Shown piece after piece: positions 858-46,749 of a DNA stretch of 64,000 nucleotides (position 1 is its first letter; every line of letters starts with the position of its first letter). The DNA comes from a virus (taxonomy: Duplodnaviria; Heunggongvirae; Uroviricota; Caudoviricetes): IMG/VR virus record IMGVR_UViG_3300011339_000564, positions 14,318 to 78,317 of that record. One strand, given 5' to 3'. The notes below the pieces were generated by a model, which ran no database searches, was not told the DNA's origin, and saw only the letters and a program-made list of their open reading frames with translations. A program made the position numbers and the translations under genes.

Positions 858-1661
858 ATGGATCATTATGTAACTTTAGGGGTAAACAAAAATGCTACCC
901 CGGACGATATTAAAAAAGCATATCGCAAACTGGCAAGTAAACATCATCCCGATAAAGGGGGCGATACCGCAACGTTTCAACAAATTGAAGAAGCATATCG
1001 TATTCTCAGTGATCCACAACAACGTCAACAATATGACAATCCAATGCCACAAGGCTTTGGGCAGAATTTTAATTTTAACGGTGGACCTGATATCTTCCAA
1101 GACTTTATGAGTCAGGTGTTTAGGCAACAACATCAGCAACATCAACACCGCCAGAGACAAAAACCAGTATTTAGAACCACAGTAACTGTAACACTTGAAC
1201 AGTCATACAAAGGTGAAGAGCAAGTTATCAGACTACAAACACCTACACTTACACATGCGGCAAATATTCAAACTCCGAAAGGGGTTCATAATGGTGACCA
1301 AGTTAAATTTGATAATATCATACAAGAGGCAAGTCTTATTGTAGAGTTTAAAATTATACCACATTTAAAATATGATAGAAATGGAAATGACTTGTTATCA
1401 AATCACCCGATATCAATATTAGATTTAATTACAGGGACATCGTTTGAGTTTACTACTATTTCAGGTAAAACATTTGAAGTTACAGTTAAACCTAAAACGC
1501 AACCATTTATACAATTAAAAATTACAGGACAAGGTATGCCCATACATGGAACCAATCAGTTTGGCGACCAAATAATCTTGTTAAAACCCTATATACCTGA
1601 TATAATTGACGAATCAATTATTAACAGCATTCTACAATCTAAAAATAAGGAATCAATATGA
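858..1661 (+). CDS. J-domain co-chaperone (DnaJ/CbpA-like, no zinc finger)
   Basis: N-terminal J domain with the HPD motif (KHHPDKGG). The context YVTLGV...AYRKLA is typical of J domains. A Gly/Phe-rich linker ([15 protein letters not shown]) follows. Confidence 0.8.
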
Positions 1662-3919
1662 CAAATTCTCCGGAAATAGAAAACATTATCGAACAATCGA
1701 TTGAGTATGCCAAACAACGTAAACATCAATATGTTACAGTTGAACACTTACTTCTTGCATTAATTAATCATCCATCTTTTACTAAATGCGTAGTTGGCTT
1801 TGGCATAGATGTTGAGTCAATGTCACACGAAATCACTGGTTATTTAGATAGCTTACACGCTATTGTTTATACTGAAACTGAAGTAGTTCCACGCAAAACA
1901 AGTAGTTTAGAACGGGTTATGAATCGTTCTGTCACTCAGGTTCTATTCACCGGACGTAGACAAGTTACTACTATTGATTTGTATCTAAGTATTGCAAGTG
2001 AAGGTAACAGTCACGCACATTATTTCATGCTCAAATACGGTATGCAAAAGAATGAGTTTGTTGCGTACTGGCAAAAACACTATAAGAATGAAGGCGCCGG
2101 CAATCTTACTGAAAATCAAGCAGATGAAATTCTTGAAGAATATACTATTAACCTAAGTGAACTTGCTAGTCAAGGTAAACTTGAACCATTGATTGGTCGT
2201 GCAAAAGAACTTGATGATATTATCAATGTGCTTGCTAAACGATTTAAATCAAATGTATTGATGGTGGGTGATCCGGGTGTAGGTAAAACTGCTATTGCCG
2301 AAGGTCTTGCACAAATGATGCACGACAAACAAGTGCCTGAATTTTTAGAAGGTCATCAACTATATTCATTAGAAGTTGGTTCATTACTTGCCGGCAGCAA
2401 ATATCGCGGGGACTTTGAAGAAAAAGTCAAAGCCATTATCGATGCATTGAATACTAAAAAGAAAGCTATTTTATTCATTGACGAAGCACATACTATGCAA
2501 GGTGCAGGTTCAAGCTCCAATGGTAGTGTTGACTTTGCTAATATGATTAAACCAGCAATTACTAAAGGCACATTGAAAGTTATTGCTAGTACTACTTGGG
2601 AAGAATACTACGAAAGTTTTGAGAAGGATCGTGCATTAATGCGTAGATTCTATCGTGTCTCAATTGATGAACCAAGCAACGAATCTACTGTTCGAATTCT
2701 TTCTGGACTAAGCACACGATTGAATGACTTTCATAGTGTTGAAATTCAAGAAGATGCAATTAAAGCATCAGTTGAAATGTCAACACGATACATTCACGAC
2801 CGAAAAAATCCTGATAAAAGTATTGACTTATTGGATGCGGCTTGTGCTAAACAACGTGTTGCAGGTAATAAAGGTGCACATATTACTAAAGACTTAGTGT
2901 TTGACCAAGTAGAGAAGTTTACGGGAGTTCCTGCAGATAAGATGAAGGGTGATAATTTTGACCTTATCAATAACCTTGAGATTAATATCAAAGGTAAATT
3001 ATATGGTCAAGATGAAACCGTTCAGCAAGTGTTAGAACGTATCTATGTTAACTTTGCTGGTATCGGTAATGATACTAAACCAACAGGTAGTTTCTTGTTT
3101 TTAGGCCCAACAGGTACAGGTAAAACAGAATTGGCTAAGTTGTTAAGTAAGAACCTTGACATGCCATTGCTCAAATATGATATGAGTGAATACGGAGAAA
3201 AACATTCAGTATCTAGTTTGATCGGTCCGCCCCCTGGTTATGTTGGCTTCGGTGACAGTCAAGTCGGTGGTGGCCGTTTAATCAACGACTTAAGTAAGAA
3301 CCCACATGCTATCATGTTGTTTGATGAAGTTGAAAAAGCACACCCTGATATATTTAACATCTTCTTACAGATGTTAGACGAAGGTACTATTACAGGAAGT
3401 AATGGTAAGAAGGTTAACTGTAAGAATGCTATTATCATTATGACTAGTAACTTAGGTAGTGCCGATGGTGAGCGCAATAACATTGGTTTTGGATCACAAG
3501 ACAAGCAAGGAGAAGATGATAAAGCATTGAAAGAATTCTTTAAGCCAGAATTCAGAAATCGTGTTGATTTGATTTGCAAGTTTAACAAACTTGATAGCTT
3601 GGCTATTAAGAAAATTGTTATTAAGTTTACTGAAGATTTGAAAAAATCATTAATTGAAAAACACAATATCAATTTAGTATTGACAGAACCAGTAGTTGAG
3701 TATCTAGCTGAACAAGGGTATGACAAGAAAATGGGTGCTAGACCACTAGCACGTAAGATTGACGAATTGATTCGTGTACCACTGAGTAAAAAAGTATTGT
3801 TTGAACGCATTAAAAATGCTACTATTACTGCCAACATTGTTGGTGACACTATTGATTTTGCAGTGACACACAAATTAACAGCTAAGGTGAATGACGATGG
3901 CATTATTGAGGTCAGTTGA
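1658..3919 (+). CDS. clpA: ClpA-like ATP-dependent Clp protease ATP-binding subunit (two AAA+ modules)
   Basis: Two Walker A motifs (GDPGVGKT and GPTGTGKT). An IGF loop (NNIGFGS) sits just before [10 protein letters not shown], as in the ClpA ClpP-docking loop. At 753 aa there is no long ClpB middle domain. Confidence 0.85.
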
Positions 3920-6538: not shown

Positions 6539-7435
6539 ATGGCAACTAAGAAAACCAAAAAAACTGAAGAAAAAACTGTACCCGTAGAAAAGGTACAGGA
6601 AATCGCTGAACAAGCGGCACAAGAACAGCAACAAGCCCCGCAACAGGGTCAAGTTCAAGTTAATGTTGACTTTCTAAAAACTACCCGTGTGCACATTGCT
6701 ATGCCATGTTACGGTGGTATGTTGACAGAATCAACATTTATGTCATTCATCAAGTGGGCTAACACAGCCCGTCAACTTGGTATTGACTGGACATTAGAAA
6801 CAATGGTTAACGAATCATTGATTAGCCGAGCACGTAATACACTAACTGCAAAGTTCTTGGACATGCCAGACGCTACTCACTTGTTCTTTGTTGACGCTGA
6901 CATTGGCTGGGAACCCTGGCATCTATTAGTTCTATTGAACCGTGATGTTGATGTTATTGGTGGACTATATCCAATGAAGACTATGCCTATTAAATGGGTA
7001 GTTAATGGTTTTGAAGGTGCAGAAGAAGGCACTGATGGCCTACAGGAAGTATCTAAAGCAGGTACCGGTTTCTTACTAATGAAGAAGCATGTATTTGACA
7101 AATTGAAGTCTCATCCTGCAGTTAAGCAGTATAAGAACGACATTGGTTTAGATCCAAGATTTGACCAACACTTAAAGACTTACTTTGATACAGCAGTTCG
7201 TCAGAATCGTTACTACAGTGAAGACTGGACATTCTGTGAAAACTGGCGTGATATAGGTGGTAAGATTTGGGTTGACAAGCGTGTACTATTACGTCACAGC
7301 GGCTCATATGTTTTCTGCCAAGAGAACCAAGAACACTTGATGAAGACTATTGGACCCATGTACGTAGACCAATTGACTCAACAAGGTATTAAGCTAGTTG
7401 ACAAAGACGGCAACGAAGCTAAAATCAACAAATAA
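6539..7435 (+). CDS. putative glycosyltransferase (DxD-type); assignment tentative
   Basis: FFVDADIGWEP contains a DXD-like motif in a predicted alpha/beta context. SD-like AAGAGGA lies upstream. Confidence 0.45.
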   Translation: MATKKTKKTEEKTVPVEKVQEIAEQAAQEQQQAPQQGQVQVNVDFLKTTRVHIAMPCYGGMLTESTFMSFIKWANTARQLGIDWTLETMVNESLISRARNTLTAKFLDMPDATHLFFVDADIGWEPWHLLVLLNRDVDVIGGLYPMKTMPIKWVVNGFEGAEEGTDGLQEVSKAGTGFLLMKKHVFDKLKSHPAVKQYKNDIGLDPRFDQHLKTYFDTAVRQNRYYSEDWTFCENWRDIGGKIWVDKRVLLRHSGSYVFCQENQEHLMKTIGPMYVDQLTQQGIKLVDKDGNEAKINK

Positions 7436-7436
7436 A

Positions 7437-7464
7437 ACAAAGCCCCGAAAGGGGCTTTTGTTTG
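7437..7464 (+). terminator. rho-independent terminator
   Basis: aaagccccgaaaggggcttttgttt: a GC stem (AGCCCC/GGGGCT) with a GAAA loop, then a T-run. Confidence 0.8.
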
Positions 7465-9162: not shown

Positions 9163-9942
9163 ATGCGTTTTACAGAAATATCAGAATCTACAACATCAGG
9201 CTCAGTATCTACTGTAGCAATGCCACTAGGCAAAACTCAAACACGTACTCAAGTATCTGGTTTAGAACCCGTGAAAAAAGTAATGGGCGGCACTGCTAAG
9301 AAAAAAGGTCCATATGGAAATAGTCTTACTGAAGGTGCTATGAAGCAACTTTCAATGGATCTTAAAGAGTTAAAAGACGAAGAATTCAAAAAGAAATATA
9401 ATATGACTAAGCAGGAAGCCCGTACTGAATTATCTGCAAAGCCTGAACCCATCAAAGAAGCAGAACTATCTGAAGATGATATCATATTAGTTCCAGGACA
9501 GGGACGCAAAATGAAAACTGGATTTGTACCGCATGGTCAAAGTCGTGTAGACCATGAAGTAGAAATGGCACGTAGTGATTTATTCAGTGCGGCAAAGAAC
9601 GCTAAACAAGTATATGAAATGATTCATAGTGTATCTGAAGATGAGGGTCTTGAGGGCTGGGTACAAGAAAAGATTATCAAAGCCAACGACTACCTAAATA
9701 CAGTACGTGAATACTTAGAAGGTAAACAAATTCAACAAGAAGCTAGTAGTCTTACATATGAAGGTAAGATTGACTTTGCCAAAAAGATACAAAAGAATGT
9801 AGATAAGAGTAACAAAGCAGTAGTAAAGACTAGAAAAGAAGTTGGTGCAAGAATTGCTGATATTGGTGCAGGCGGCAAAGAACACAATGTTAAAACTGAC
9901 AAAGCGTGGGACGATGCACAAAAAGCAAAGAAAGCAAAATAA
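9163..9942 (+). CDS. Lys/Glu-rich hypothetical protein (259 aa), possibly virion-associated or scaffold-like
   Basis: Long charged ORF directly upstream of the giant protein gene. Confidence 0.5.
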   Translation: MRFTEISESTTSGSVSTVAMPLGKTQTRTQVSGLEPVKKVMGGTAKKKGPYGNSLTEGAMKQLSMDLKELKDEEFKKKYNMTKQEARTELSAKPEPIKEAELSEDDIILVPGQGRKMKTGFVPHGQSRVDHEVEMARSDLFSAAKNAKQVYEMIHSVSEDEGLEGWVQEKIIKANDYLNTVREYLEGKQIQQEASSLTYEGKIDFAKKIQKNVDKSNKAVVKTRKEVGARIADIGAGGKEHNVKTDKAWDDAQKAKKAK

Positions 9943-9943
9943 A

Positions 9944-12900
9944 ATGAGCAATATTCTACAAGGCTTAAACGAAACACAAAAACATGACGGTGTATTCTTG
10001 TTAACAGAATCTCGTACATACAAGTTATGGGAGAGTGCTGGACAAAAGATTAGTGAAGCACAACTAACTGCCGATCAGATTAATCAAATCTTTAAACAAG
10101 TTGAACAAGGTGCTACTGCCGCAGGTGGTAATCGTACAATGCTCGGTAAAGGTAAAGACGCAGCCGGCGCAGTAAAGCAAGCATATGATGATTTGGTGAG
10201 TAAAGCACAGAACTCAGGACCTATTAAAGGTGTTGATGCGATGTACGACAAAGCCGCCGAAAAATTAAAACAAGCAACTGGTGGCGATCAGGGTGTAATG
10301 AAATATGTACAGAAATATCGTGACTTTGCTAAAGAACACCCAGTAGCACAAGGTTTAATATATTCAGCATTAATTGCAGCCGCTGGTATCAGTGGTGCAG
10401 GTATTGGTGGTGCAGCCGCACTAGGTTTGTTTAAGATGGTAGACAAATTGTTACAGGGTGAGAAGTTTAGTACTGCTGTAGGTAAAGGCGTAACTACTGG
10501 TGCAATGGCTTATGGTGCAAGTAAAGTTGGTGATCTTTTCAAAGGTTCACCGCAAGGCGCACCTACTACTGCTGGATCAGACGCTACCGCAGGTGCGGCA
10601 CAAGATACATTGTCTGCGACTAGACAAGCAGTGGAAAAAGAAGCTATGGATGCCATTAAGTCTAGAATTGCCAATGGAGAAATAGCACCCGGCGATCAAG
10701 GTGCCATACGATATTTGGCATACAAAATGCTAGCTGGATCATGTATGCCGCCGCCGTCTATAGAAACTTCTGTAGAAAAATTAATAACACGATCTATGGG
10801 TGATGTAGGAACTAGCGCAACTAATACAGTGTCCGGCACATTGTCAGGTGTTACCGGAGAACAGATGGCTAGTCATCCTGCATACCAAGCAATGATTCAA
10901 AAGTTTGGCAATACACCCGGCGCTCGTCAGGCGGCTATGGCTGCTGCCAAGTCAGCAATTCTTAAGGGACAAGTCAATGAAAGTATCAATTTATCAGAAT
11001 CTCAAATCTTTCTATTGATAGGTAAGATTGTTGAACGTCAACGTAAACTTGACGAAGGCATCATGGATACACTTAAAGGCGCCGCAGGTAAAGCCGCCGA
11101 TTGGGCACAAACTAAAGGAACTAATTTAACAACTAAAGTTACTGCTGACAAATTATTACAAGCGTGGAAGAAAGCTGGTAGTCCAACAGATAGTTTAGAT
11201 GTTGCAAGCATTATTCAAAAAGCTGGTGTACCATCTGATTCAATCAAACAAGTATACACTACAATGCAAATACCTTTTGCAGGTGAAAAAGGTGCAGGTG
11301 CGAGTACAAAACGTAATATAGATGTTGATCCATCAAGTGTTGCACCAGCCGCTCCAACAAGTACACCCACTGCTTCTGCACCGTCAGCTACAGCAAATGC
11401 GCCGGCGGCAGATGCATCACAGCCTGCTACGGCCGCAACTGGCTCTTTAGCACAAGCACAAGAACTCATTGCAAAATTAGATCCAGAAACTAAAACAAAA
11501 CTTATATCAACATTGAAACAAGAGTTGAGTGTAGCTGAAAGTCGAATCAATGAATTATCTAATGAAAAATTAGGACAATACAAAAAAGCCGCAAGTGCTG
11601 ACGCTACTGCCGCTGACAAAGCAGGTGACTATAAGCGTGGTGATAAACGTTTCAGTGGTATTGTTCGTGCAACTAACAAACAGTTTGCTAATGATACTAA
11701 AAAACATGGTCAGCAAGGTGTGGCGGAAGGCTTAGAGCAATCATTATCGTCAATGGTAAGACAAGATCAGACTGAGCGGAATGAGTATGCAACCTTTGTA
11801 AAATCACAAGCAGGTGGTGATTGGTCCAAAGGGGCTAAAATGTATGCTCAACTCAAAAAAAGACCCATCGATGATATATTTGGTGATGCAATAAGATTAA
11901 ACCAGTTTATGAAAATGAAGTTTGATTTTGATAAATTTACCAATGAAGATTGGGACAATTATTGGTTGTTAGCACAGCATTGTGATAATAATCGTGACTT
12001 TCAAAAGAATGCTTTATCAATAATTAAAAAATATCAAGGTACAGATCATTCGCACTACAAATATCTATACGATAGAATCAGTATGGGTCTAACTGGTAAA
12101 CAGAAATACGGAACACAGAATATTAAAGAGCAAGGCGTGGCAGAAGGCTTCCCTCATGATGTTGACCATATGCCGGGTCCTGTGATTCGCAATGCTGATA
12201 TGACTACAGATAATGTCAAGACCAAAGACAAAGCAGAATGGGACAGAGCCACTGATAGCATCAACGCACGGGTGTTTGATGATATGAGTGAATTTCGCAC
12301 TGACAACAACGGTGAAACAGTTGTCGGTGATAGCGCAGTTTGGGCCAAGTGGGACAATGCTACACAAACAGGTTGGTTCAATGCCAAAGGTCGCCCATTA
12401 AAGCCTTGGCCTGTTAAAGAGCAAGGTGTGGCGGAAGGTGATGGGCCAAGATATATTGATAACATAATGAACCAGTATAAGGCAGGCTTGCCTGGCCAAA
12501 ACCCGGCGGCCTTATCTAAACCAACTAGAGCAGTTGATGCCAGAGGTCGCACACAAGAACAATGGGCACAATTAGTTAGGAGCAAGTTTCCGGGTGCTAA
12601 AATTACACAGGCTAAAATGATTGACGGGCCTATGCAAGCAACCTTACCTGATGGTAGAAAACTTGGATGGAAAAAAGTTGAACAAATTGATGAAATTATT
12701 GATCCTAGCACAAAGATGGCATGGGCATTACGCCACATCGCCGGGTTCCTTACTAGATTATTTCCTTACGCAGTGGGCGCCGGAACTTTGTGGGCAGCCA
12801 GTGGACTGTTGGCCCCACTAGTGGCTGCATCCGGTGGAGTGGCCGCGGCAATTTCTGCATTAGGCGGTTCAATGGGATCAGCTACAGGCGCGGCTGCAGG

Positions 12901-13795
12901 AGCAGTTGGCGGTGCCAGTATAATGCAAATTATTAAAAACTTATTTGCCGCAGACGAGAATAGTATACAAGCAGGAATTAAAAAGTGGGTAGAAAGACAA
13001 GTAGGTGACGAAGCCGATGTACAAGAATTTTTACTAACTCATGCCAAAGCCGCATATGACGGTAAACCTGGTTTCCGTTGGAGGGCTAAAGAGTGGCCTG
13101 TTAAATTAAGTAAAGATCAAGCAGAAGCATATTTAGAAAAGAAAGATAAATCTTGGCTTGATTATGAAAAGCAAAAAATAATCGATGCTGAAAAAGCGAA
13201 GGCTGAAAAAGATAAAGAAGGTATGATGGAAGAACAACTTGATGAACTAAATTGCTGGTCAGGTTACCATAGAGTTGCCGGCACTAAAGCAGGCTTTCCA
13301 GGTAGTTGTGCTAAAAATAAAACAAATGAATCAGAACATAAATGCCCACATTGCGGTGGCGAGATGGTTAGTGAAGAACTAATGAATGAAAAGAAAGATG
13401 CTTGCTACTATAAAGTAAAGAGCCGTTATAAAGTATGGCCAAGTGCTTATGCTAGTGGTGCGTTAGTTAAGTGCCGTAAGAGTGGTGCTGATAGCTGGGG
13501 CAACGGTGGAAAGAAGAATGAAGGTTCTATACTAGAAGGTATTAACCGAGCAGACGAAAGTTTGCATGATTGGTTTAATAAAGAAAAGTGGGTTCGCATG
13601 GATACTAAAGGAAAGATTAAAGGTCCGTGTGCTAGAGAACCAGGAGAAGGTAAACCTAAATGTTTACCTCAAGCAAAGGCACATAGTTTAGGCAAAAAAG
13701 GTCGTGCAAGCGCGGCTGCTAGAAAACGCAGAGAAGATCCCAATCCAGAACGTAGTGGTAAAGCCATCAATGTTAATACTAAAAAGAAAGACTAA
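9944..13795 (+). CDS. giant protein (1283 aa). Features are Gly/Ala-rich hydrophobic segments, three EQGVAEG motifs, coiled-coil and a C-terminal Cys cluster. Putative virion internal/ejection protein.
   Basis: ATG at 9944 lies just after the TAA of the upstream ORF; the track start 9842 is an in-frame upstream extension. Motifs: QQGVAEGLEQ, KEQGVAEGFPHD, KEQGVAEGDGPRY; CPHCGG...C...C near the C-terminus; hydrophobic block AVGAGTLWAASGLLAPLVAASGGVAAAISALGG. Confidence 0.75.
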   Translation: MSNILQGLNETQKHDGVFLLTESRTYKLWESAGQKISEAQLTADQINQIFKQVEQGATAAGGNRTMLGKGKDAAGAVKQAYDDLVSKAQNSGPIKGVDAMYDKAAEKLKQATGGDQGVMKYVQKYRDFAKEHPVAQGLIYSALIAAAGISGAGIGGAAALGLFKMVDKLLQGEKFSTAVGKGVTTGAMAYGASKVGDLFKGSPQGAPTTAGSDATAGAAQDTLSATRQAVEKEAMDAIKSRIANGEIAPGDQGAIRYLAYKMLAGSCMPPPSIETSVEKLITRSMGDVGTSATNTVSGTLSGVTGEQMASHPAYQAMIQKFGNTPGARQAAMAAAKSAILKGQVNESINLSESQIFLLIGKIVERQRKLDEGIMDTLKGAAGKAADWAQTKGTNLTTKVTADKLLQAWKKAGSPTDSLDVASIIQKAGVPSDSIKQVYTTMQIPFAGEKGAGASTKRNIDVDPSSVAPAAPTSTPTASAPSATANAPAADASQPATAATGSLAQAQELIAKLDPETKTKLISTLKQELSVAESRINELSNEKLGQYKKAASADATAADKAGDYKRGDKRFSGIVRATNKQFANDTKKHGQQGVAEGLEQSLSSMVRQDQTERNEYATFVKSQAGGDWSKGAKMYAQLKKRPIDDIFGDAIRLNQFMKMKFDFDKFTNEDWDNYWLLAQHCDNNRDFQKNALSIIKKYQGTDHSHYKYLYDRISMGLTGKQKYGTQNIKEQGVAEGFPHDVDHMPGPVIRNADMTTDNVKTKDKAEWDRATDSINARVFDDMSEFRTDNNGETVVGDSAVWAKWDNATQTGWFNAKGRPLKPWPVKEQGVAEGDGPRYIDNIMNQYKAGLPGQNPAALSKPTRAVDARGRTQEQWAQLVRSKFPGAKITQAKMIDGPMQATLPDGRKLGWKKVEQIDEIIDPSTKMAWALRHIAGFLTRLFPYAVGAGTLWAASGLLAPLVAASGGVAAAISALGGSMGSATGAAAGAVGGASIMQIIKNLFAADENSIQAGIKKWVERQVGDEADVQEFLLTHAKAAYDGKPGFRWRAKEWPVKLSKDQAEAYLEKKDKSWLDYEKQKIIDAEKAKAEKDKEGMMEEQLDELNCWSGYHRVAGTKAGFPGSCAKNKTNESEHKCPHCGGEMVSEELMNEKKDACYYKVKSRYKVWPSAYASGALVKCRKSGADSWGNGGKKNEGSILEGINRADESLHDWFNKEKWVRMDTKGKIKGPCAREPGEGKPKCLPQAKAHSLGKKGRASAAARKRREDPNPERSGKAINVNTKKKD

Positions 13796-13804
13796 AGGAC
13801 AATA

Positions 13805-14245
13805 ATGTTATCAGATAATCTAAAAGTACTTTTAGCTAGTACACAAAGTTTTGCTATTAAAACACAAAACTTTCATTGGAATGTTGAGGGGAGTAATTTT
13901 CCACAGTATCATGCATTTTTTGATACGTTATACGGTGATGTAAGTGCTACTATCGATCCTATCGCTGAATATATCAGAATATTAGGTGCTTACACACCCG
14001 GCAGTTTACAACGTTATGCTGAACTAAGTATCATTCAAGACCAAATCAAAATCCCACGTGCTCAACTAATGTTTGCTGAATCACTACAAGATTGTGAAAA
14101 AATGAGTGAATTAGTCGTTGCTATGTTTGACGAAGCAACAAACGAACGTCAGCAAGGCATTGCTAATTACATGGCTGAACTACAAGACCTATACGGTAAG
14201 AAAGCATGGTTCATTCGTTCTACATTGAAAACAGAACGTGAGTAA
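13805..14245 (+). CDS. dps: Dps-like ferritin-fold DNA-protection protein
   Basis: LKVLLASTQSFAIKTQNFHWNVEGSNFPQYHAFFDTLY matches the Dps N-terminal signature (HWNVxGxxFxxLHxxF). About 146 aa, typical Dps length. Confidence 0.7.
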   Translation: MLSDNLKVLLASTQSFAIKTQNFHWNVEGSNFPQYHAFFDTLYGDVSATIDPIAEYIRILGAYTPGSLQRYAELSIIQDQIKIPRAQLMFAESLQDCEKMSELVVAMFDEATNERQQGIANYMAELQDLYGKKAWFIRSTLKTERE

Positions 14246-15515
14246 ATTAGAATTTACCCAGAAAGAATGGGAAAAGATAGAAAATAACGGGACTTATTGT
14301 CCCGGTTTATTTAACAGCAAATACATAGAAACTGACGGTGGACTGAGAGCATGTTGTGTTCAAGATTTAAAAGGTGAACATTATACAAATACAGAATCCT
14401 ATAACACCACTTCGTTAAAACAAGCCAGACAAAATTCATTATCAGGGATTAAAGATTCCAGTTGCGCTAGATGTTGGGAAAATGAATCATTAAACACCAG
14501 ATCATATAGACAAGGTCTAGTAGAGTCTGCTATTCACTGGAAAAGTAAAATCAAAGATAATATAAATGTTGACTATTCCATCACAGAACCCACCATAGAC
14601 TACTTAGACATTAGATTTGATAATATCTGTAATTTAAGATGTAGATATTGCAGTACTATTTTTAGTTCTAGTTGGAGACACGAAACTGAGTTACTAGAAA
14701 AAGAATTACCAATATTTAAATATATAAAAAGAAGATCAGTAGATACAAAAATATTGAATAGTGTAACCGATATTGACACGATATTAGCTGACCTTAGAAC
14801 AGTTAAAAAAATATTTTTTGCGGGTGGCGAGCCATTAGTAAACGATAAACATTATGAAGTGTTAGAATATCTAATAGATAATAATAGAACCAACATTGAA
14901 ATAACGTATAATACTAATTTTACAAACATTAAAAAAGTTATTCCTTATTGGAAAAAGTTTTCAAACATACACGTGGGTGCAAGTTTAGATGCAAATTATA
15001 AAAGAGGAGAATACATTCGTAAAAATCTCGTATGGGACCAGATTGTAGAAAATAGAAAATTAATGATTGCCGAAGTTCCTCATGTTCAATTTGAAATAAA
15101 TGCGTCAATGAGTATATTGAATGCGTATAATGTAGTAGATTTTCATAAAGAATGGATTAATGATAAATTAATTGGACCTTTTGATTTAACTGCATGGAAT
15201 TTTGTATCTAAACCTGAACATTATGATATTAGGAATTTACCTGACCATCATAAGATTAAATTAAAAGAAATATATCAAACTCATATTGATTGGTTAAACT
15301 CCCTCACATCAGGCAATGATATTAAGTTTAAAAGTAAAAATGATTCTAGTTTTGCTATTCAATCATATCAAGGTATAATTAATAGGTTAAATTTAAGTAG
15401 AAATTCATCTTTTGACAAATTTTGGGAATTTGACAAATGGTTAGATAATAATAGAGATGAAAACTTTTTTGATGTGTTTCCTGAGTATGAGGACTTTGCT
15501 AGATATTTTAGCTAA
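14238..15515 (+). CDS. radical SAM domain protein with an N-terminal Cys-rich extension
   Basis: CNLRCRYC is a CX3CX2C radical SAM cluster motif. Additional N-terminal cysteines (CPG...ACC...CARC). No C-terminal SPASM cysteines. GTG start assumed at 14238. Confidence 0.65.
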   Translation: MSKLEFTQKEWEKIENNGTYCPGLFNSKYIETDGGLRACCVQDLKGEHYTNTESYNTTSLKQARQNSLSGIKDSSCARCWENESLNTRSYRQGLVESAIHWKSKIKDNINVDYSITEPTIDYLDIRFDNICNLRCRYCSTIFSSSWRHETELLEKELPIFKYIKRRSVDTKILNSVTDIDTILADLRTVKKIFFAGGEPLVNDKHYEVLEYLIDNNRTNIEITYNTNFTNIKKVIPYWKKFSNIHVGASLDANYKRGEYIRKNLVWDQIVENRKLMIAEVPHVQFEINASMSILNAYNVVDFHKEWINDKLIGPFDLTAWNFVSKPEHYDIRNLPDHHKIKLKEIYQTHIDWLNSLTSGNDIKFKSKNDSSFAIQSYQGIINRLNLSRNSSFDKFWEFDKWLDNNRDENFFDVFPEYEDFARYFS

Positions 15516-15544: not shown

Positions 15545-15982
15545 ATGAAAAAAATTATAACAACAATACTATTGGCATTAGCCACTGTAACATATGCACA
15601 GAAAACACCTCAAGGTGTTACATACGATGCAAACATCATTAAAGTAAGTGACGGTGACACTATTGTTATTGCCGCACCTTTTTTACCAGCTCCATTAAAG
15701 CCACAGTTAGCAGTTAGAATATTTGGTGTTGACACCCCTGAAAAAGGATTCAGAGCTAAATGTGAATCAGAAAATCAACGTGGTTTAGCCGCTAGCGAGT
15801 TTACTAAGAAACTCGTAGGTGCTAGTCAGAAGCGTCAAGTGATATTATATGATTGGGATAAGTTTGGCGGCCGTGTCTTGGGTGACATTATATTAGACGG
15901 CAAAAGCCTACGACAACAATTGATTGCTAATGGCTTTGCCCGTGAGTATTTTGGTGAAGCCAAGCAATCTTGGTGTAATTAA
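15545..15982 (+). CDS. secreted staphylococcal-nuclease-like thermonuclease (SNase fold)
   Basis: Signal peptide MKKIITTILLALATVTYAQ. VSDGDTIVI...RIFGVDTPEKG matches the SNase catalytic region. Confidence 0.7.
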   Translation: MKKIITTILLALATVTYAQKTPQGVTYDANIIKVSDGDTIVIAAPFLPAPLKPQLAVRIFGVDTPEKGFRAKCESENQRGLAASEFTKKLVGASQKRQVILYDWDKFGGRVLGDIILDGKSLRQQLIANGFAREYFGEAKQSWCN

Positions 15983-16707: not shown

Positions 16708-16787
16708 AGTAATTTTTTCTATATTTTGTAAATTTTTATGCCAAATGGAATAAATATATGTTCATCATATTTATTATCGGAGGACAG

Positions 16788-17747
16788 ATGAGAAAACTTT
16801 TAGTATTATTAGCATTTATACCGTTAGTTGCTTTTGCTTGGCAACCAACAAAACCTGTAACAGTTATATTCCCAAATGGCCCGGGAGCAGGAAATGAAAT
16901 ATCATTTCGTATTGTAGCAGAGATTGTAGAAAAACAAACTGGTGCAAAATTTGTACCTGAATATAGGCCGGGAGCTGATGGCAATATAGCTATCAATCAC
17001 TTTGTAACAGTTCCTACTGATGGGCACACTATCAGTGTTCCGGCATGTCAGTCAAATTGGGTCACCCCTGAAGTGTGGTATCCAAAGGTAATCAAGTATA
17101 ACCCAATGGATTTAGAACCCATTGCTAATATTGCACGTAGTCCATTAGCATTCTGGGCGCATCCTAGCAGTAAGATTAATACTCCCGAAGAACTAGTAGC
17201 CGCTATTCGCAAAAAAGAGCGCCCTATTACAATAGCAATAGGTGGCGGCGGTCATAAGTTAGCAGTTGAATATCTTGCTGCCAAACTAAATGTACCGGGC
17301 GGTGATCGAATAGAAACAGCTATGTATAAAGGTCCAGCACAAGCGTTATTAGATGTAATGGGAGGTCACGTTGAATTTGGAGTGACCCCGGTTGCTGTTG
17401 GATACCCTCACGTACAAACAGGAAAACTAAAGTTAATTGGTATTGCTGATACTAGACCATTGCCTGGATTAGAAACAGCACCATTGATGAATAAGGCAGC
17501 ACCTGGATTAAGCATACATGGTTGCTGGAATATAGTTCTACCTCCCAATACCCCGCAGGATATACAAAAATGGTATGCTGAACACTTTGTTCCTGCAATA
17601 CGTAGCGCGGAAGCAGGCGCTAAATTCAAAGAAAACATGATGTACATTACACCCGAAGAACATAGCCCAGCAGGTGTTCGTGCTAGTATGTCGAGACTAC
17701 AGCAAGTTTGGCAACCGATTGCTAGAAGAATAGATCCTAATAAATGA
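16788..17747 (+). CDS. TctC/Bug-family periplasmic solute-binding protein (tripartite tricarboxylate transporter receptor-like)
   Basis: Signal peptide MRKLLVLLAFIPLVAFA. Length and motifs (PNGPGAGNEISFRIVAE, EYRPGADGNIAI) resemble the Bug/TctC family. Start chosen at the internal ATG 16788 with GGAGGA upstream. Confidence 0.55.
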   Translation: MRKLLVLLAFIPLVAFAWQPTKPVTVIFPNGPGAGNEISFRIVAEIVEKQTGAKFVPEYRPGADGNIAINHFVTVPTDGHTISVPACQSNWVTPEVWYPKVIKYNPMDLEPIANIARSPLAFWAHPSSKINTPEELVAAIRKKERPITIAIGGGGHKLAVEYLAAKLNVPGGDRIETAMYKGPAQALLDVMGGHVEFGVTPVAVGYPHVQTGKLKLIGIADTRPLPGLETAPLMNKAAPGLSIHGCWNIVLPPNTPQDIQKWYAEHFVPAIRSAEAGAKFKENMMYITPEEHSPAGVRASMSRLQQVWQPIARRIDPNK

Positions 17748-18319
17748 AAATAGGTTTATCAATGGAGATGACCCGCAAGTTGCGTGATACGTGGCATGCG
17801 GCTATCAATTACGAATGGTATGACTTTTTATCAGAGCATGATACTGTTCCTTTATCCTGTCATGGAAAAGTTCCGCAGACAGATGAGTTTGACTTAATCA
17901 TATTGGCAGGTGGTAATGACATGCACGGCATTAAAACATGGCGTGACAATCATTATCCAATACGTGACCACTATGAGCATAGTTTGATTCAACAATGTTT
18001 GTTAACTAACACCCCTGTTGCTGGCATATGCAGAGGAGCTCATTTTATCAATCATGTTATGGGTGGCACACATAAGTTAATGGATCACCCATACGACAAT
18101 GTTAAAGTTCAATTGCCTCAGTTTGAAGTAACTTGCCATCACACAATTCAACTTGATACATTAGCTCCTGGCTTTGAAGTGTTACAACAAGATAAAAATG
18201 GTATTGTTGAATTAGCAGTAAATAAATCACAACGTATGTTAGGTATTGGTTGGCATCCAGAACGTGAAGTTAACAAACATACTAGACAATACATTTTAGA
18301 TTTGATTAAGGACTTATGA
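17744..18319 (+). CDS. class I glutamine amidotransferase-like protein
   Basis: GICRGAHFINHV (nucleophile-elbow-like Cys) and GWHPERE (His-Pro-Glu of the GATase triad). Confidence 0.5.
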   Translation: MKIGLSMEMTRKLRDTWHAAINYEWYDFLSEHDTVPLSCHGKVPQTDEFDLIILAGGNDMHGIKTWRDNHYPIRDHYEHSLIQQCLLTNTPVAGICRGAHFINHVMGGTHKLMDHPYDNVKVQLPQFEVTCHHTIQLDTLAPGFEVLQQDKNGIVELAVNKSQRMLGIGWHPEREVNKHTRQYILDLIKDL

Positions 18320-42444: not shown

Positions 42445-42623
42445 TTCTTGCGACCCCTAAACCCTACTGGCATCTGCAAATCATTAACGGGAAACATTGC
42501 TTTGAACCACTCATCAGTACCAGGCTTAGCAGTAATTTTGCTACGGTCTATAGGCACAGAAGATGTAGGTTTTCCTCTATGGTCGGTAACTCCTGCAAGT
42601 CTTTTAAGTTGATCTATGTTCAT
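42441..42623 (-). CDS. hypothetical small protein (60 aa)
   Basis: ORF that fills the gap, with overlaps on both ends. Confidence 0.35.
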   Translation of the reverse strand: MNIDQLKRLAGVTDHRGKPTSSVPIDRSKITAKPGTDEWFKAMFPVNDLQMPVGFRGRKK

Positions 42624-43174
42624 AGACTCTTACCCCAGCGTGTGTTAATCACATTCCAGTTGATAATCTTCCACTGTTCAGCCAAATACTTTTTCTTATC
42701 AGCACCGTAGTCTAATATCCACGCATGTTCCCACCAATCAACTAATAACAATATATCATTGCGTACTTCATGGTTCTTAATTGTTTTAATTTTACCATCA
42801 GTTGCTAAATATACCCACCCACTACCTTGTATCTTCATTGCTTCAGTTTCAAACTGTGACTTCATATTATCGTATGAGCCAAAATGTTTGTTAATAAAGC
42901 CCATCATGGGGCCGTTTGGATTGTTTTTATTTCTTACTTCACGGAACTGAGGGAACAATGTATTATGTAAGAATGCACCTGCATAGTTAAATTCTTTATC
43001 TCCGATATCTTTGTTATATCTTTCAGCATAGCCATGTGCTAACTTGCCATAGTGTAAGTCTATAGTGTCTACCGACAAAACCGGACTTAGTTCTTTTGGC
43101 TCAAAATTAAGCTGAATGATTTCTATATCTTGAGGTTTTGACTTATCCTCAAGTAACTGAATTAAATCACGCAT
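42620..43174 (-). CDS. sodA: Fe/Mn superoxide dismutase
   Basis: N-terminal LHYGKLAHGYAERYNK matches H..KHH..YV. C-terminal VDWWEHAWILDY matches the SOD signature DxWEHAYY. Confidence 0.8.
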   Translation of the reverse strand: MRDLIQLLEDKSKPQDIEIIQLNFEPKELSPVLSVDTIDLHYGKLAHGYAERYNKDIGDKEFNYAGAFLHNTLFPQFREVRNKNNPNGPMMGFINKHFGSYDNMKSQFETEAMKIQGSGWVYLATDGKIKTIKNHEVRNDILLLVDWWEHAWILDYGADKKKYLAEQWKIINWNVINTRWGKSL

Positions 43175-44955
43175 CAGTGTTTCAATAATAATGTAGAAAT
43201 GATGTTAGGATCGTTAGCACTGATATCACCTTCACCGGGTGCAACGATAACATTGTACTTCATACCGGCTGGTATTGATTTACGTTTAGCCATGTACTGA
43301 TTATAGTCTAATATAGAGTTGGCACTTAATCCATACTCTTTTGCAAGACGATTCTTTAGTTCAGGTAACTTATCAGGTTGTACTTGCCATTGGCCTTCTG
43401 ACCCCTTAACTAAGTTTTTCTTTTCGTCCTTAACTAATAAATCTTGGAACAAGTCATCTGGAACAATACGACTATTCTTAGTTTTATCTAAGTTAGCATC
43501 ACTTGCCTTAACTTGTTTCTCTTGTGATGTATGAGCACCTTCACTCCAATTGATAATAAAGTTAGGTGGCTTCTGACCTAATGCGGCACCAGCCATCTTT
43601 GTGTAAGCATAGAACTTAGTATCAGGATGCTTTGCAGCCATCTTTAATGCCAAGTCTAAATATTCTGGGCTGAAGAAGTCACCAGCATCATGCCAACGAA
43701 TAGTAGTTTGCCAACCTTTAGGGAATTTCTTATCACCCTTTTGACCAGCTTGTTCTTCTTTGCTAATCTCACTACTTAATTGATTGAAGAACCCGTCTGG
43801 ATCATTCAATAGATATGTTAATATTCTTCCGTCACTTTGCCATGCGTTCTTAAACTGAATTTTTCCGCCCTTCATAGCAAAACAATCTATTTTACATGAG
43901 CCTGCGCCCGGGCATGTATTAACAATGATTAGTTTATTTGTTTGTTCGTCTAGTGCAATACCAGTCAATGCCGCAAAGCCAACGTTGAAGAATTGTTCAA
44001 ACTCTCCGTTACTATGCTTCATCTTTTCGTTTTGCTTTAGTAATGATTTAGGGCGTTGTGACAATGTTTTCTTAACTGCATCCTCATCATATGTTGCACC
44101 ATCTGGACCTAAGTATTCAACTACACTACTACGGTGGATATAAGGCATTTTGTATCTATCTGTTTTTGTTTTACCAGATACATATTTTTCATTACCCTTT
44201 TTATCTACCTTAACATTACCTGCTTTGTCTGTATCAGGAGTACCAACAATACGTTTCATGTAATCTTGGAACTCATCGCCACCAAACTCACGGCTACTTG
44301 CTGGCAGTTTAGTTGCTTCTTCTAAGCCAGATAGTTTGCGAATTCTATCTAAGCCTTCCGCCACACCTTCATTTGCACTTTGACTAGCCAATTTATAAAT
44401 ATACGCAGTACCGTTGGGTAATAGATACGTAGTATAATTTCCTATACCCCTCTCACCCATTTGAGCCTGTTGAATTGTTATCATTTTTGCGCCGCGCGGC
44501 GTTGGGCCATCATTAGGTACCAGCATACCTTTATATTCTTTGCCTCCATGGTGCACAACTATACCAGTGTCGCTTCGTTCTACTTTTTCTGCTGTATCAA
44601 CATTTTGATTTGGCATCTGACCACCAGATTTTTCTGCACTGGCTTGAAATCCTTGTTGAGCCATTTGTTGTGCGGCACTAGGTGACATTTGGCCATCAGC
44701 ACCAAGACTAACTCTTGCGTGTGCAGAGCCAGCTGACCCTAACGCACCCATTGCACCTAATGCCATTGCACCTGTTGCGGCTGCTTTTTTCCAATTAATT
44801 TCGTCAAGTTGCTCTTCCGTCATACCTTCTTCTGATTCTTCATCGGGCATATCACCCGCTTTAGTAACGAATTGCTGAGGTGTCATAATTTGGATGCCAC
44901 TAGGTGCTCCAGGCATTTTTGGCTCTACGCCTTCGAATAGTTCTTTGAAATTCAT
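43174..44955 (-). CDS. large hypothetical protein (593 aa) with a Gly/Ala-rich N-terminal region and a GVAEG motif; candidate packaged virion protein
   Basis: NEGVAEGLDRI at about aa 200. AATGAMALGAMGALGSAGSA block. Confidence 0.55.
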   Translation of the reverse strand: MNFKELFEGVEPKMPGAPSGIQIMTPQQFVTKAGDMPDEESEEGMTEEQLDEINWKKAAATGAMALGAMGALGSAGSAHARVSLGADGQMSPSAAQQMAQQGFQASAEKSGGQMPNQNVDTAEKVERSDTGIVVHHGGKEYKGMLVPNDGPTPRGAKMITIQQAQMGERGIGNYTTYLLPNGTAYIYKLASQSANEGVAEGLDRIRKLSGLEEATKLPASSREFGGDEFQDYMKRIVGTPDTDKAGNVKVDKKGNEKYVSGKTKTDRYKMPYIHRSSVVEYLGPDGATYDEDAVKKTLSQRPKSLLKQNEKMKHSNGEFEQFFNVGFAALTGIALDEQTNKLIIVNTCPGAGSCKIDCFAMKGGKIQFKNAWQSDGRILTYLLNDPDGFFNQLSSEISKEEQAGQKGDKKFPKGWQTTIRWHDAGDFFSPEYLDLALKMAAKHPDTKFYAYTKMAGAALGQKPPNFIINWSEGAHTSQEKQVKASDANLDKTKNSRIVPDDLFQDLLVKDEKKNLVKGSEGQWQVQPDKLPELKNRLAKEYGLSANSILDYNQYMAKRKSIPAGMKYNVIVAPGEGDISANDPNIISTLLLKH

Positions 44956-45662: not shown

Positions 45663-45691
45663 TTGACTTTATTGCGTAGTTGTGCTACACT
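45663..45691 (+). promoter_or_regulatory. sigma70-like promoter TTGACT-17-TACACT in the divergent intergenic region
   Basis: Hexamers with 17-nt spacing upstream of uvdE (ATG 45721). Confidence 0.4.
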
Positions 45692-45720
45692 GTATATATT
45701 ATTTATCACTTTGGGCTTTT

Positions 45721-46749
45721 ATGTACACAAATCAATCAGTCAAACGTATCGGCTTTGCTTGCAAATGGGCAGAAATCAACAAGAAAGGTGAAATTGCTTC
45801 AGCCGAAGGTCTTAACACTGGCGGCACAACTCATGCTTGGGCAAAGCGTAATAGTCGTAATGTAGTAGAAGAAAAGATTATGGATGTTGCAAAACGCAAT
45901 ATTATGAATACACATGCACTAGTTAAACGTGTCGCTACACTAGAACCACAATTACGTATGTTGCGTCTTACTAGCGATATGCTGAGTTTTTACACACTAG
46001 ATGAATATAAAGGCTTTTGGCAAAGTAGTGATGTACAAAACAGCTTGGCTCGATGGTTTGCCCCGATCGGGGAAACAGCACGTGCCAATGATGTTCGTCT
46101 TAGTTTTCACCCTGACCAGTTTGTAGTTTTAGCAAGCGACCGTGAAGAAGTAGTAAATAAGAGTATTGAAGAATTTGAATATCATTGTGACATGGTTCGT
46201 TGGATGGGCTATGGCAAAGAGTTTCAAGACTTCAAAGTAAATGTACATATCTCGGGACGTAAAGGCCCACAAGGCATCAGGGATGTGTACAACAGATTGT
46301 CGCCAGAAGCGAGAAACACACTAACACTAGAGAATGAGGAATACACACATGGACTTACTGACTGCTTATCATTATCTGACCTCGTACCTACGGTCATGGA
46401 CATACATCACAATTGGATTCGTGAGGGAGAATATATTTCCCCCAATGATGACAACGTTAAAAAGGTTATTGATAGTTGGCGCGGTATTAGGCCTACTTTA
46501 CATTACTCCGTCAGCCGTGAAGATGTACTTGTCGGGCATTCCGGATCACAGTTACCCGATCATGGTGCGTTGATTGAATCTGGATACAGTAAGCAAAAAC
46601 TTCGGGCACATAGTGATTACTATTGGAACGAAGCTGTGAACGATTGGGCATTGACATTCATTGATAAATTTGATATGATGTGTGAATCGAAGGCAAAGAA
46701 TCTTGCCAGCTTTAAATTATTAGAGAGATATAAATGTTTGACAAAATAA
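45721..46749 (+). CDS. uvdE: UV-damage endonuclease (UvdE/UVDE family)
   Basis: RLSFHPDQFVVLAS, VNVHISG, LTLENEE, MDIHHNW and RAHSDYYW align with conserved UvsE/UVDE blocks (RTSFHPNQF, INIHIGG, MTLENDD, FDFHH, RSHADYV). Confidence 0.8.
   Translation: MYTNQSVKRIGFACKWAEINKKGEIASAEGLNTGGTTHAWAKRNSRNVVEEKIMDVAKRNIMNTHALVKRVATLEPQLRMLRLTSDMLSFYTLDEYKGFWQSSDVQNSLARWFAPIGETARANDVRLSFHPDQFVVLASDREEVVNKSIEEFEYHCDMVRWMGYGKEFQDFKVNVHISGRKGPQGIRDVYNRLSPEARNTLTLENEEYTHGLTDCLSLSDLVPTVMDIHHNWIREGEYISPNDDNVKKVIDSWRGIRPTLHYSVSREDVLVGHSGSQLPDHGALIESGYSKQKLRAHSDYYWNEAVNDWALTFIDKFDMMCESKAKNLASFKLLERYKCLTK

Follow-up and report, generated by a model that had tools for sequence, protein, structure and literature searches.

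The closest solved homologue of the protein considered here is the Dps of Pseudomonas aeruginosa (PA0962; PDB 8ff9), in which the ferroxidase residues are H37, H49, D64 and E68 with W38 adjacent, the ferritin-like pore is lined by D125, D129, 'D130' and D134, iron is bound by D134 and Q138, and the oxidant is H2O2, not O2, a delta-dps mutant being sensitive to H2O2 (PMC10002758). DNA binding in some Dps proteins has been attributed to basic tails at the N- or C-terminus, several Dps bind no DNA, and the P. aeruginosa protein, without basic tails, interacts with DNA and cleaves it in vitro; in Listeria Dps, the pair W32/Y50 has been implicated in radical trapping (PMC10002758). Among phages, Dps-like genes have been described for 'Gratiaviridae', for seven Lactobacillus phages and for a further 36 genomes of gut phages, where they were taken to confer tolerance of oxidative stress (PMC8008677, PMC6669764). 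When a large Yersinia phage infects its host, the host's own dps, catalase and peroxiredoxin rank with the genes that are induced most (PMC7354516).

The window analysed here, a stretch of 64,000 nucleotides of viral DNA, encodes a 146-residue protein (Table 1) that an earlier note had assigned to the Dps family from its length and a short motif. With P. aeruginosa Dps it shares 32-33% identity over 139 ungapped residues, a modelled fold that superposes at TM 0.92-0.94 and an rmsd of 1.1-1.2 Å, identical ferroxidase ligands and neighbouring Trp, and the lack of basic tails; it differs in being phage-encoded where the other is cellular, in having T112/Q116/Q117/N121 in place of the acidic pore residues, and in having Q14, A17 and L68 where the P. 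aeruginosa protein has Y27, Y30 and Y81 of its ten-Tyr network. The tail-less Listeria innocua Dps, HP-NAP, B. anthracis Dlp-1 and S. aureus Dps, which we adopt as functional model, are of similar size (142-156 residues), superpose at TM 0.90-0.95 and, like the phage protein, are extended little or not at all at their termini, and the Listeria protein has a W/Y radical-trap pair at the same spacing; yet these mini-ferritins are only 17-29% identical to the phage protein, and S. aureus Dps and Dlp-1 carry acidic residues at the pore positions equivalent to 116, 117 and 121. E. coli Dps (model NF006975) belongs to the same superfamily and has the same ferroxidase chemistry, but the phage protein scores 45 bits against the equivalog cutoff of 114. 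A Lys-rich N-terminal tail mediates DNA condensation by E. coli Dps and has no counterpart in the phage protein, where 23 residues precede the HW motif, against 50 in E. coli Dps. The phage Dps proteins reported earlier (PHROG 3636) belong to the same family (E=4.8e-29) and have been given the same antioxidant role that is proposed here (PMC8008677, PMC6669764), but no GenBank phage Dps is more than 33% identical to the window protein, and the window phage is much larger and of a different type.

Table 1. Features discussed in the text; positions are those of the window, except for the two fusion genes, which are given on their own loci.
Feature	Position	Strand	Basis or remark
ClpA/ClpB-like double-AAA+ ATPase, full-length	1658-3919	+	Clp_N, AAA, AAA_2, ClpB_D2-small; phrog_4871 E=1e-234
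1317-aa ORF, conserved upstream neighbour of dps	9842..13795	+	ends 9 nt 5' of dps
Shine-Dalgarno-like AAGGA	13795..13799	+	read from sequence; 5 nt 5' of the dps ATG
dps CDS, 146-aa Dps-family mini-ferritin	13805..14245	+	ORF list; ATG start, TAA end; stop codon included
Ferroxidase-centre segment (H24, W25, H36, D40, Y43, D51, E55)	13874..13969	+	ungapped alignment to P. aeruginosa Dps
Ferritin-like three-fold pore lining R115-Q116-Q117-G-I-A-N121...E125	14147..14179	+	alignment to P. aeruginosa Dps
Radical SAM protein	14238..15515	+	Pfam Radical_SAM E=7e-11; start overlaps dps stop
SNase-like nuclease	15545..15982	+	Pfam SNase E=2.4e-10
TctC-family periplasmic binding protein, then class-I glutamine amidotransferase/Peptidase_C26 gene	16758-18319	+	
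Fe/Mn superoxide dismutase	42620..43174	-	Pfam Sod_Fe_C E=4.3e-24; PDB 1ues E=2.9e-23
Gene adjoining SOD, GP88 domain	43174-44955	-	
UvdE UV-damage endonuclease	45682-46749	+	2.5 kb from SOD
P0242 Dps fusion	L245:7001-9208		adjoins Phage_portal gene
P0224 Dps fusion	L246:7001-9889		

Gene, fold and ferroxidase centre

The reading frame is preceded by a Shine-Dalgarno-like sequence that overlaps the stop codon of the upstream ORF by one base, and neither strand has a competing ORF of at least 40 aa there. Residues 24-40, HWNVEGSNFPQYHAFFD, hold the motif quoted in the earlier note, but the family resemblance extends well beyond them. Pfam PF00210 (Ferritin) aligns with residues 5-143 at 58.8 bits (E=7.2e-16), well over its gathering score of 24.5 bits; the PHROG 3636 profile aligns its positions 7-148 of 149 with residues 1-142; and the best PDB sequence match, 8ff9 (E=3.5e-21), covers residues 3-141 without a gap, about 70 further Dps chains being matched in the same search. 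Since PF00210 and 8ff9 span the full length, the match is not confined to the N-terminal motif. The NCBIfam Dps equivalog models, NF006975 among them, were matched below cutoff only, so that the phage protein is no orthologue of a characterised Dps.

An AlphaFold2 monomer model built on an alignment of 87 sequences reaching down to 31% identity (pLDDT 97.8, pTM 0.92) superseded an earlier one from a shallow alignment of 88-95% identity (pLDDT 64.8). Its helices span residues 2-26, 32-59 (with a kink at 48-49), 68-74 (BC), 86-113 and 117-141, giving the topology typical of Dps: four helices form a bundle, the long crossover loop contains the short BC helix, and a C-terminal E helix is lacking. 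In a Foldseek comparison with the PDB the top 50 matches were Dps subunits throughout (TM 0.90-0.95, rmsd 0.9-1.6 Å). The modelled fold, together with the full-length profile and structure-sequence matches, bears out the Dps assignment of the earlier note.

With P. aeruginosa Dps the alignment has no gaps and a constant offset of 13, by which H37, H49, D64, E68 and W38 of that protein map to H24, H36, D51, E55 and W25 of the phage protein. All five are invariant among the best 120 of 2111 relatives, and in the diverse 87-sequence alignment the sole invariant columns are H24, H36, D51, E55 and R58, the last being the equivalent of P. aeruginosa R71; W25 is present in 83 of those 87 sequences, and Y43 is conserved in at least 90% of them, at a spacing from W25 (18 residues) that equals that of W32 and Y50 in Listeria Dps. 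The inter-subunit ferroxidase centre appears complete, with H24 on helix A and H36 on helix B predicted to be contributed by one subunit, D51 and E55, four residues apart on helix B, by its partner, and W25/Y43 to act as a radical sink. The earlier note had proposed checking whether the ferroxidase residues are conserved, naming their loss together with a match limited to the short N-terminal motif as the outcome that would speak against Dps: all four ligands are present and invariant in relatives down to 31% identity, and the match is full-length. By its sequence and predicted structure, the gene product is a bona fide tail-less Dps mini-ferritin with an intact catalytic site.

Codon 40 (13922-13924) is dimorphic: among the best 120 of 2111 relatives, 86 have D and the other 34 have N. 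The corresponding ferroxidase position, second-shell or part of site B, is Glu in P. aeruginosa Dps and G, E, D or Q across the wider family.

A jumbo-phage lineage and the history of its dps gene

That the DNA belongs to a phage, as the earlier note had assumed, is corroborated by a T4-type family B DNA polymerase (phrog_262, E=2e-197) whose nearest relatives come from jumbo phages of 346-490 kb, the closest being those of Sinorhizobium phage Phosso (469 kb; 49%) and Agrobacterium phage Atu_ph07 (490 kb; 46%), followed by the Klebsiella phages RaK2/K64-1 (~346 kb; 44%). Given this polymerase kinship and the occurrence of Dps relatives on contigs of up to 524 kb, the window is judged to be part of a widespread uncultured RaK2/Atu_ph07-like jumbo-phage lineage. 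A search with the 9-20 kb region found no nucleotide match to GenBank phages, so there is no close cultured relative. Other genes in the window encode an ATP-dependent ligase, the ClpA/B-like ATPase, the SNase-like nuclease, the TctC-family protein, a glutamine amidotransferase and UvdE.

Relatives of the protein fall into 2111 protein clusters at E<1e-5 in a large protein collection, with identities of 88-98% among the 120 matches listed, and IMG/VR holds 209 viral dps loci, on contigs that include ones of 335, 348, 352, 367 and 524 kb. For 52 distinct dps alleles dN/dS has a median of ~0.08 and dS stands at ~1.26, 121 pairs being saturated; by this measure dps is under strong purifying selection, and a decaying gene or pseudogene is rejected by the dN/dS of 0.08 together with the invariant catalytic residues. 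A single-protein scan of species-representative bacterial and archaeal genomes found no close cellular relative, the best cellular matches (subfamily profile A3) being 32-39% identical and spread over many phyla. Because cellular homologues do not exceed 39% identity, the GC content fits that of the neighbouring genes and dS is near saturation, recent acquisition of dps from a host is rejected; on this comparative evidence the gene is an old, selected resident of the jumbo-phage lineage.

Among cultured phages the gene is scarce. A tblastn search of GenBank phages returned homologues in 44 of 50,697 records, at most 33% identical, from Salmonella 7-11-like, Proteus, Cronobacter and Aeromonas phages, Synechococcus phages S-SRM01 and S-EIVl, and a Bacteroides phage, and gave no match in the cultured polymerase relatives Phosso, Atu_ph07 and RaK2/K64-1; in BFVD, 18 viral proteins matched the structure at E <=1e-3, Lactobacillus phages and Bacillus phage G among them. 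The remark in the earlier note that Dps is rare in phages is in keeping with these counts, but needs the qualification that phage Dps had already been described (PHROG 3636; PMC8008677, PMC6669764): it is a rare yet established category, to which the window gene adds a structurally intact, well-supported example. The nearest standalone relatives, P0123 and P0126, lie on contigs shorter than 1 kb.

Possible roles: iron and peroxide removal or DNA binding

The genome that carries dps also encodes an Fe/Mn superoxide dismutase (SOD), a pairing to which the earlier note had drawn attention and which withstands closer inspection. The alignment with 1ues covers both SOD domains (residues 17-64 for the N-domain, 61-179 for the C-domain), and the metal-binding D-x-W-E-H motif is present ('vdwwehaw', against 'fdvwehay' in 1ues). 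Related SOD genes occur at 537 viral loci, and the two genes recur together on related contigs: at least ten contigs, including those of 335, 348, 367 and 524 kb, are common to the top-80 lists for dps and SOD, and four of the five contigs longer than 300 kb among the dps top 80 also have SOD. At distances of ~20-66 kb, the two genes share a genome, not an operon. Close to SOD lie the GP88-domain gene that adjoins it and the gene for UvdE; the combination of UvdE, SOD and Dps suggests a photo-oxidative damage kit.

We consider it probable, from sequence and model, that this jumbo-phage Dps-type mini-ferritin is made during infection and functions as an antioxidant cage that removes iron and peroxide. 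Twelve subunits would assemble as a hollow cage, and, to judge from Dps biochemistry, Fe2+ would be oxidised at sites in the dimer interfaces, preferentially by H2O2, and stored as a ferric mineral, a reaction that would remove both Fenton reagents from the infected cell. The phage SOD would convert superoxide into H2O2, which Dps would then consume, and the two together would hold down hydroxyl-radical damage to the replicating phage DNA once host stress responses fail. The induction of host dps, catalase and peroxiredoxin by the large Yersinia phage provides a rationale for a phage-encoded replacement (PMC7354516). Against an antioxidant cage can be set the NCBIfam equivalog scores (45 versus 114 bits), the absent acidic pore lining, with iron uptake perhaps altered or reduced as a result, the distance of 20-66 kb between SOD and dps without an operon, and the activity of the tail-less P. 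aeruginosa Dps on DNA in vitro (PMC10002758). Widespread uncultured phages of 335-525 kb keep dps under strong selection beside SOD and UvdE; if the proposal is right, this implies that oxidative damage in the course of infection genuinely lowers the fitness of these phages.

The name Dps implies DNA protection, and the charge of the protein bears on how such protection might come about. The phage protein is acidic, with a pI of 4.92 (4.66-5.73 across its clade) and a net charge of -6; it begins MLSDNLK, its helix A starts at residue 2 and its helix D extends to residue 141 of 146, and neither terminus has a basic tail. Since the protein is acidic and lacks basic tails, protection is most likely chemical, through removal of iron and peroxide, and not by coating or condensing DNA. 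Of the name given in the earlier note, membership of the mini-ferritin family therefore stands, whereas DNA protection by binding does not follow for an acidic protein without a basic tail.

A DNA-binding, condensing nucleoid protein of the E. coli Dps kind, serving either to protect phage DNA or to shut off the host nucleoid, is accordingly an unlikely alternative to the antioxidant cage, even though PHROG 3636 and many GenBank records bear the label 'DNA binding protein' and the closest solved homologue, though devoid of basic tails, is active on DNA in vitro (PMC10002758). These labels are inherited names, not tests; DNA binding is tied to basic tails in some Dps and absent in several others (PMC10002758), and the phage protein, with its low pI and helices reaching nearly to both ends, has no tails. 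The marks of the E. coli-type condensing protein are likewise missing from it, NF006975 being matched below cutoff and a Lys-rich N-terminal tail being absent.

Three-fold pore, fused relatives and gene neighbourhood

The ferritin-like pore departs from that of canonical Dps. In the alignment with P. aeruginosa Dps, D125, D129, 'D130' (which reads as E in the 8ff9 alignment), D134 and Q138 correspond to T112, Q116, Q117, N121 and E125. In a joint alignment none of 120 clade members (0 in 120/120) has an acidic residue at 116, 117 or 121, against two or three acidic residues at the same positions in 72 of 79 cellular relatives, a sample drawn by motif patterns; the canonical negatively charged entry for Fe2+ is thus not seen at these three positions. 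Near the phage pore E114 and E125 remain, and the exchange of D134/Q138 for N121/E125 retains one carboxylate, moved one helical turn inward. The pore looks re-engineered, with neutral Q116, Q117 and N121 and a carboxylate at E125, and not demonstrably lost; given these neutral residues and the displaced carboxylate, iron uptake kinetics or ion selectivity may differ from those of cellular Dps.

The pore motif recurs in larger proteins. Of the cluster representatives at 50% identity, the closest 150 include 22 that are at least 300 aa long, and 18 of these 22 keep the full ferroxidase motif. In P0224, P0242 and P0243 Pfam places a Peptidase_S78 domain, the prohead protease of caudoviruses, on the N-terminal side of Dps, and it finds Zeta toxin, WGR and Hva1_TUDOR domains as other fusion partners; PHROGs describe P0224, P0242, P0243, P0247 and P0266 as head maturation protease, portal-fusion, minor head or virion structural protein, and BFVD names three such fusions 'Prohead protease'. 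In 20 fusion domains, positions 116, 117 and 121 hold no or one acidic residue, N121 is present in all 20, and the pore motif is of the QQGIAN type found in the phage Dps. A neighbour-joining tree without bootstrap places the query clade in a group of 49 tips with 14 fusions and one of the 79 cellular sequences, and this group nests in one of 104 tips that holds all 20 sampled fusions and four of the 79 cellular sequences. Together these data suggest a phage-type Dps lineage, marked by the neutral QQGIAN pore and mostly apart from the sampled cellular Dps, within which the Dps domain seems often to be delivered into proheads. A literature search for Dps fused to prohead protease or polyvalent proteins, or for Dps in jumbo phages or among auxiliary metabolic genes, found nothing relevant.

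Several members of this wider set deserve separate mention. The Zeta-toxin, WGR and Hva1_TUDOR fusions resemble the 'polyvalent' packaged proteins of phages. P0122 (777 aa) carries two complete Dps domains in tandem, and a region with 'AGRVLNGRNLNKLRQA' comes after them; P0121 (2161 aa), a highly repetitive protein, matches the Dps motif region 26 times ('RVERSNLPSGHAFFSTLYG' repeats) and is probably a repeat that has been translated spuriously. Among 'cellular' Dps the best match, at 39% identity, lies on a 48-kb contig binned as an Aquiluna MAG (CAZKLA010000004.1, our L165); it has the phage-type pore motif NKQGLADF, and the contig may be mis-binned phage DNA and not actinobacterial.

Upstream of dps the gene order is conserved (g6539, g7398, g9163, the 1317-aa ORF, then dps), and the 1317-aa ORF stands 5' of dps in 63 of the best 80 of 209 related viral loci. 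This ORF matches only PHROGs of unknown function; over its last 140-180 residues it also resembles hypothetical proteins from many cyanomyophages. The C-terminal domain (approximately residues 1138-1313) contains Cys, the N-terminal half is Ala/Gly-rich with a hydrophobic Gly/Ala stretch, and a (K)EQGVAEG or QQGVAEG motif occurs three times; these repeats are possible protease cleavage sites. A head module was rejected as an explanation of the upstream block, the neighbours resembling nucleotidyl- and cytidylyl-transferases and a cyanomyophage domain.

Against this background, Dps as virion cargo, packaged in the capsid or ejected with the DNA so as to protect the genome or mineralise iron in the head, seems a rather improbable reading of the window gene, one drawn by analogy with the fusions. 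The query nests with all 20 multi-domain fusions and only four of 79 cellular sequences, albeit in a tree without bootstrap support; the fusions bear head-protein regions, keep the ferroxidase motif and share the query's QQGIAN-type pore, P0242 adjoins a portal gene, and dps is tightly coupled (9 nt) to the conserved 1317-aa ORF. The window protein is, however, a bare 146-aa domain with no extension for targeting or scaffold binding, and its neighbours are nucleotidyltransferase-like, cytidylyltransferase-like and a ClpA/B-like ATPase, with no recognisable head genes among them. Were the cargo reading true, Dps would be a packaged antioxidant or iron cargo, a phage counterpart of the ferritin-like cargo of encapsulins, and would represent a new class of virion-delivered protective protein; the pore and the fusions would extend Dps biology from a cytoplasmic stress protein to virion-associated cargo. 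The parallel with encapsulins, whose shells have the HK97 fold, applies only to the fusion relatives, in which a ferritin-superfamily domain is coupled to HK97-type head proteins; the window dps is standalone, and encapsulin cargo is of the Flp/IMEF type, not Dps.

The region 3' of dps is a variable spot among the 80 related loci. The radical SAM gene is found beside dps in none of the best 80 of 209 related loci, is confined to contigs with an identical Dps and has a GC content of 26-33%, against 36% for dps; it looks like a recent AT-rich insertion in this spot. An iron depot, in which the cage would store and release iron for the phage radical SAM enzyme, Fe-SOD and ribonucleotide reductase in iron-poor water, is just as doubtful as virion cargo, because the overlap of the radical SAM gene with the dps stop codon in the window, which together with the Fe/Mn SOD in the same genome would favour it, is variant-specific and apparently recent, and because Dps cages store little iron relative to ferritins. 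The antioxidant cage remains the reading that we prefer.

The SNase-like gene lies 0.5-5.4 kb 3' of dps in 53 of the best 80 of 209 loci. The TctC-family gene (TctC being the binding-protein family of tripartite tricarboxylate transporters) and the amidotransferase gene that follows it are unusual phage auxiliary genes, and among the 80 related loci the pair adjoins dps only ~9 times. Two copies of the T4 late-promoter motif TATAAATA are present where 8 would be expected, giving no late-promoter signal, and sigma-70-like sites stand at chance (39 against 36.1 expected). A terminator-like hairpin just 3' of dps (14288-14304) was set aside as coincidental, since it falls where the conserved N-terminus of the radical SAM protein is encoded. 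Another terminator-like hairpin, strong and bidirectional, at 7439-7458 (AAAGCCCCGAAAGGGGCTTT plus a T-run) stands 3' of an ORF ending at 7435 and lies within what is annotated as the 5' end of the following ORF (TTG at 7398), whose PHROG match begins at residue 41; the true start of that ORF is probably further downstream.
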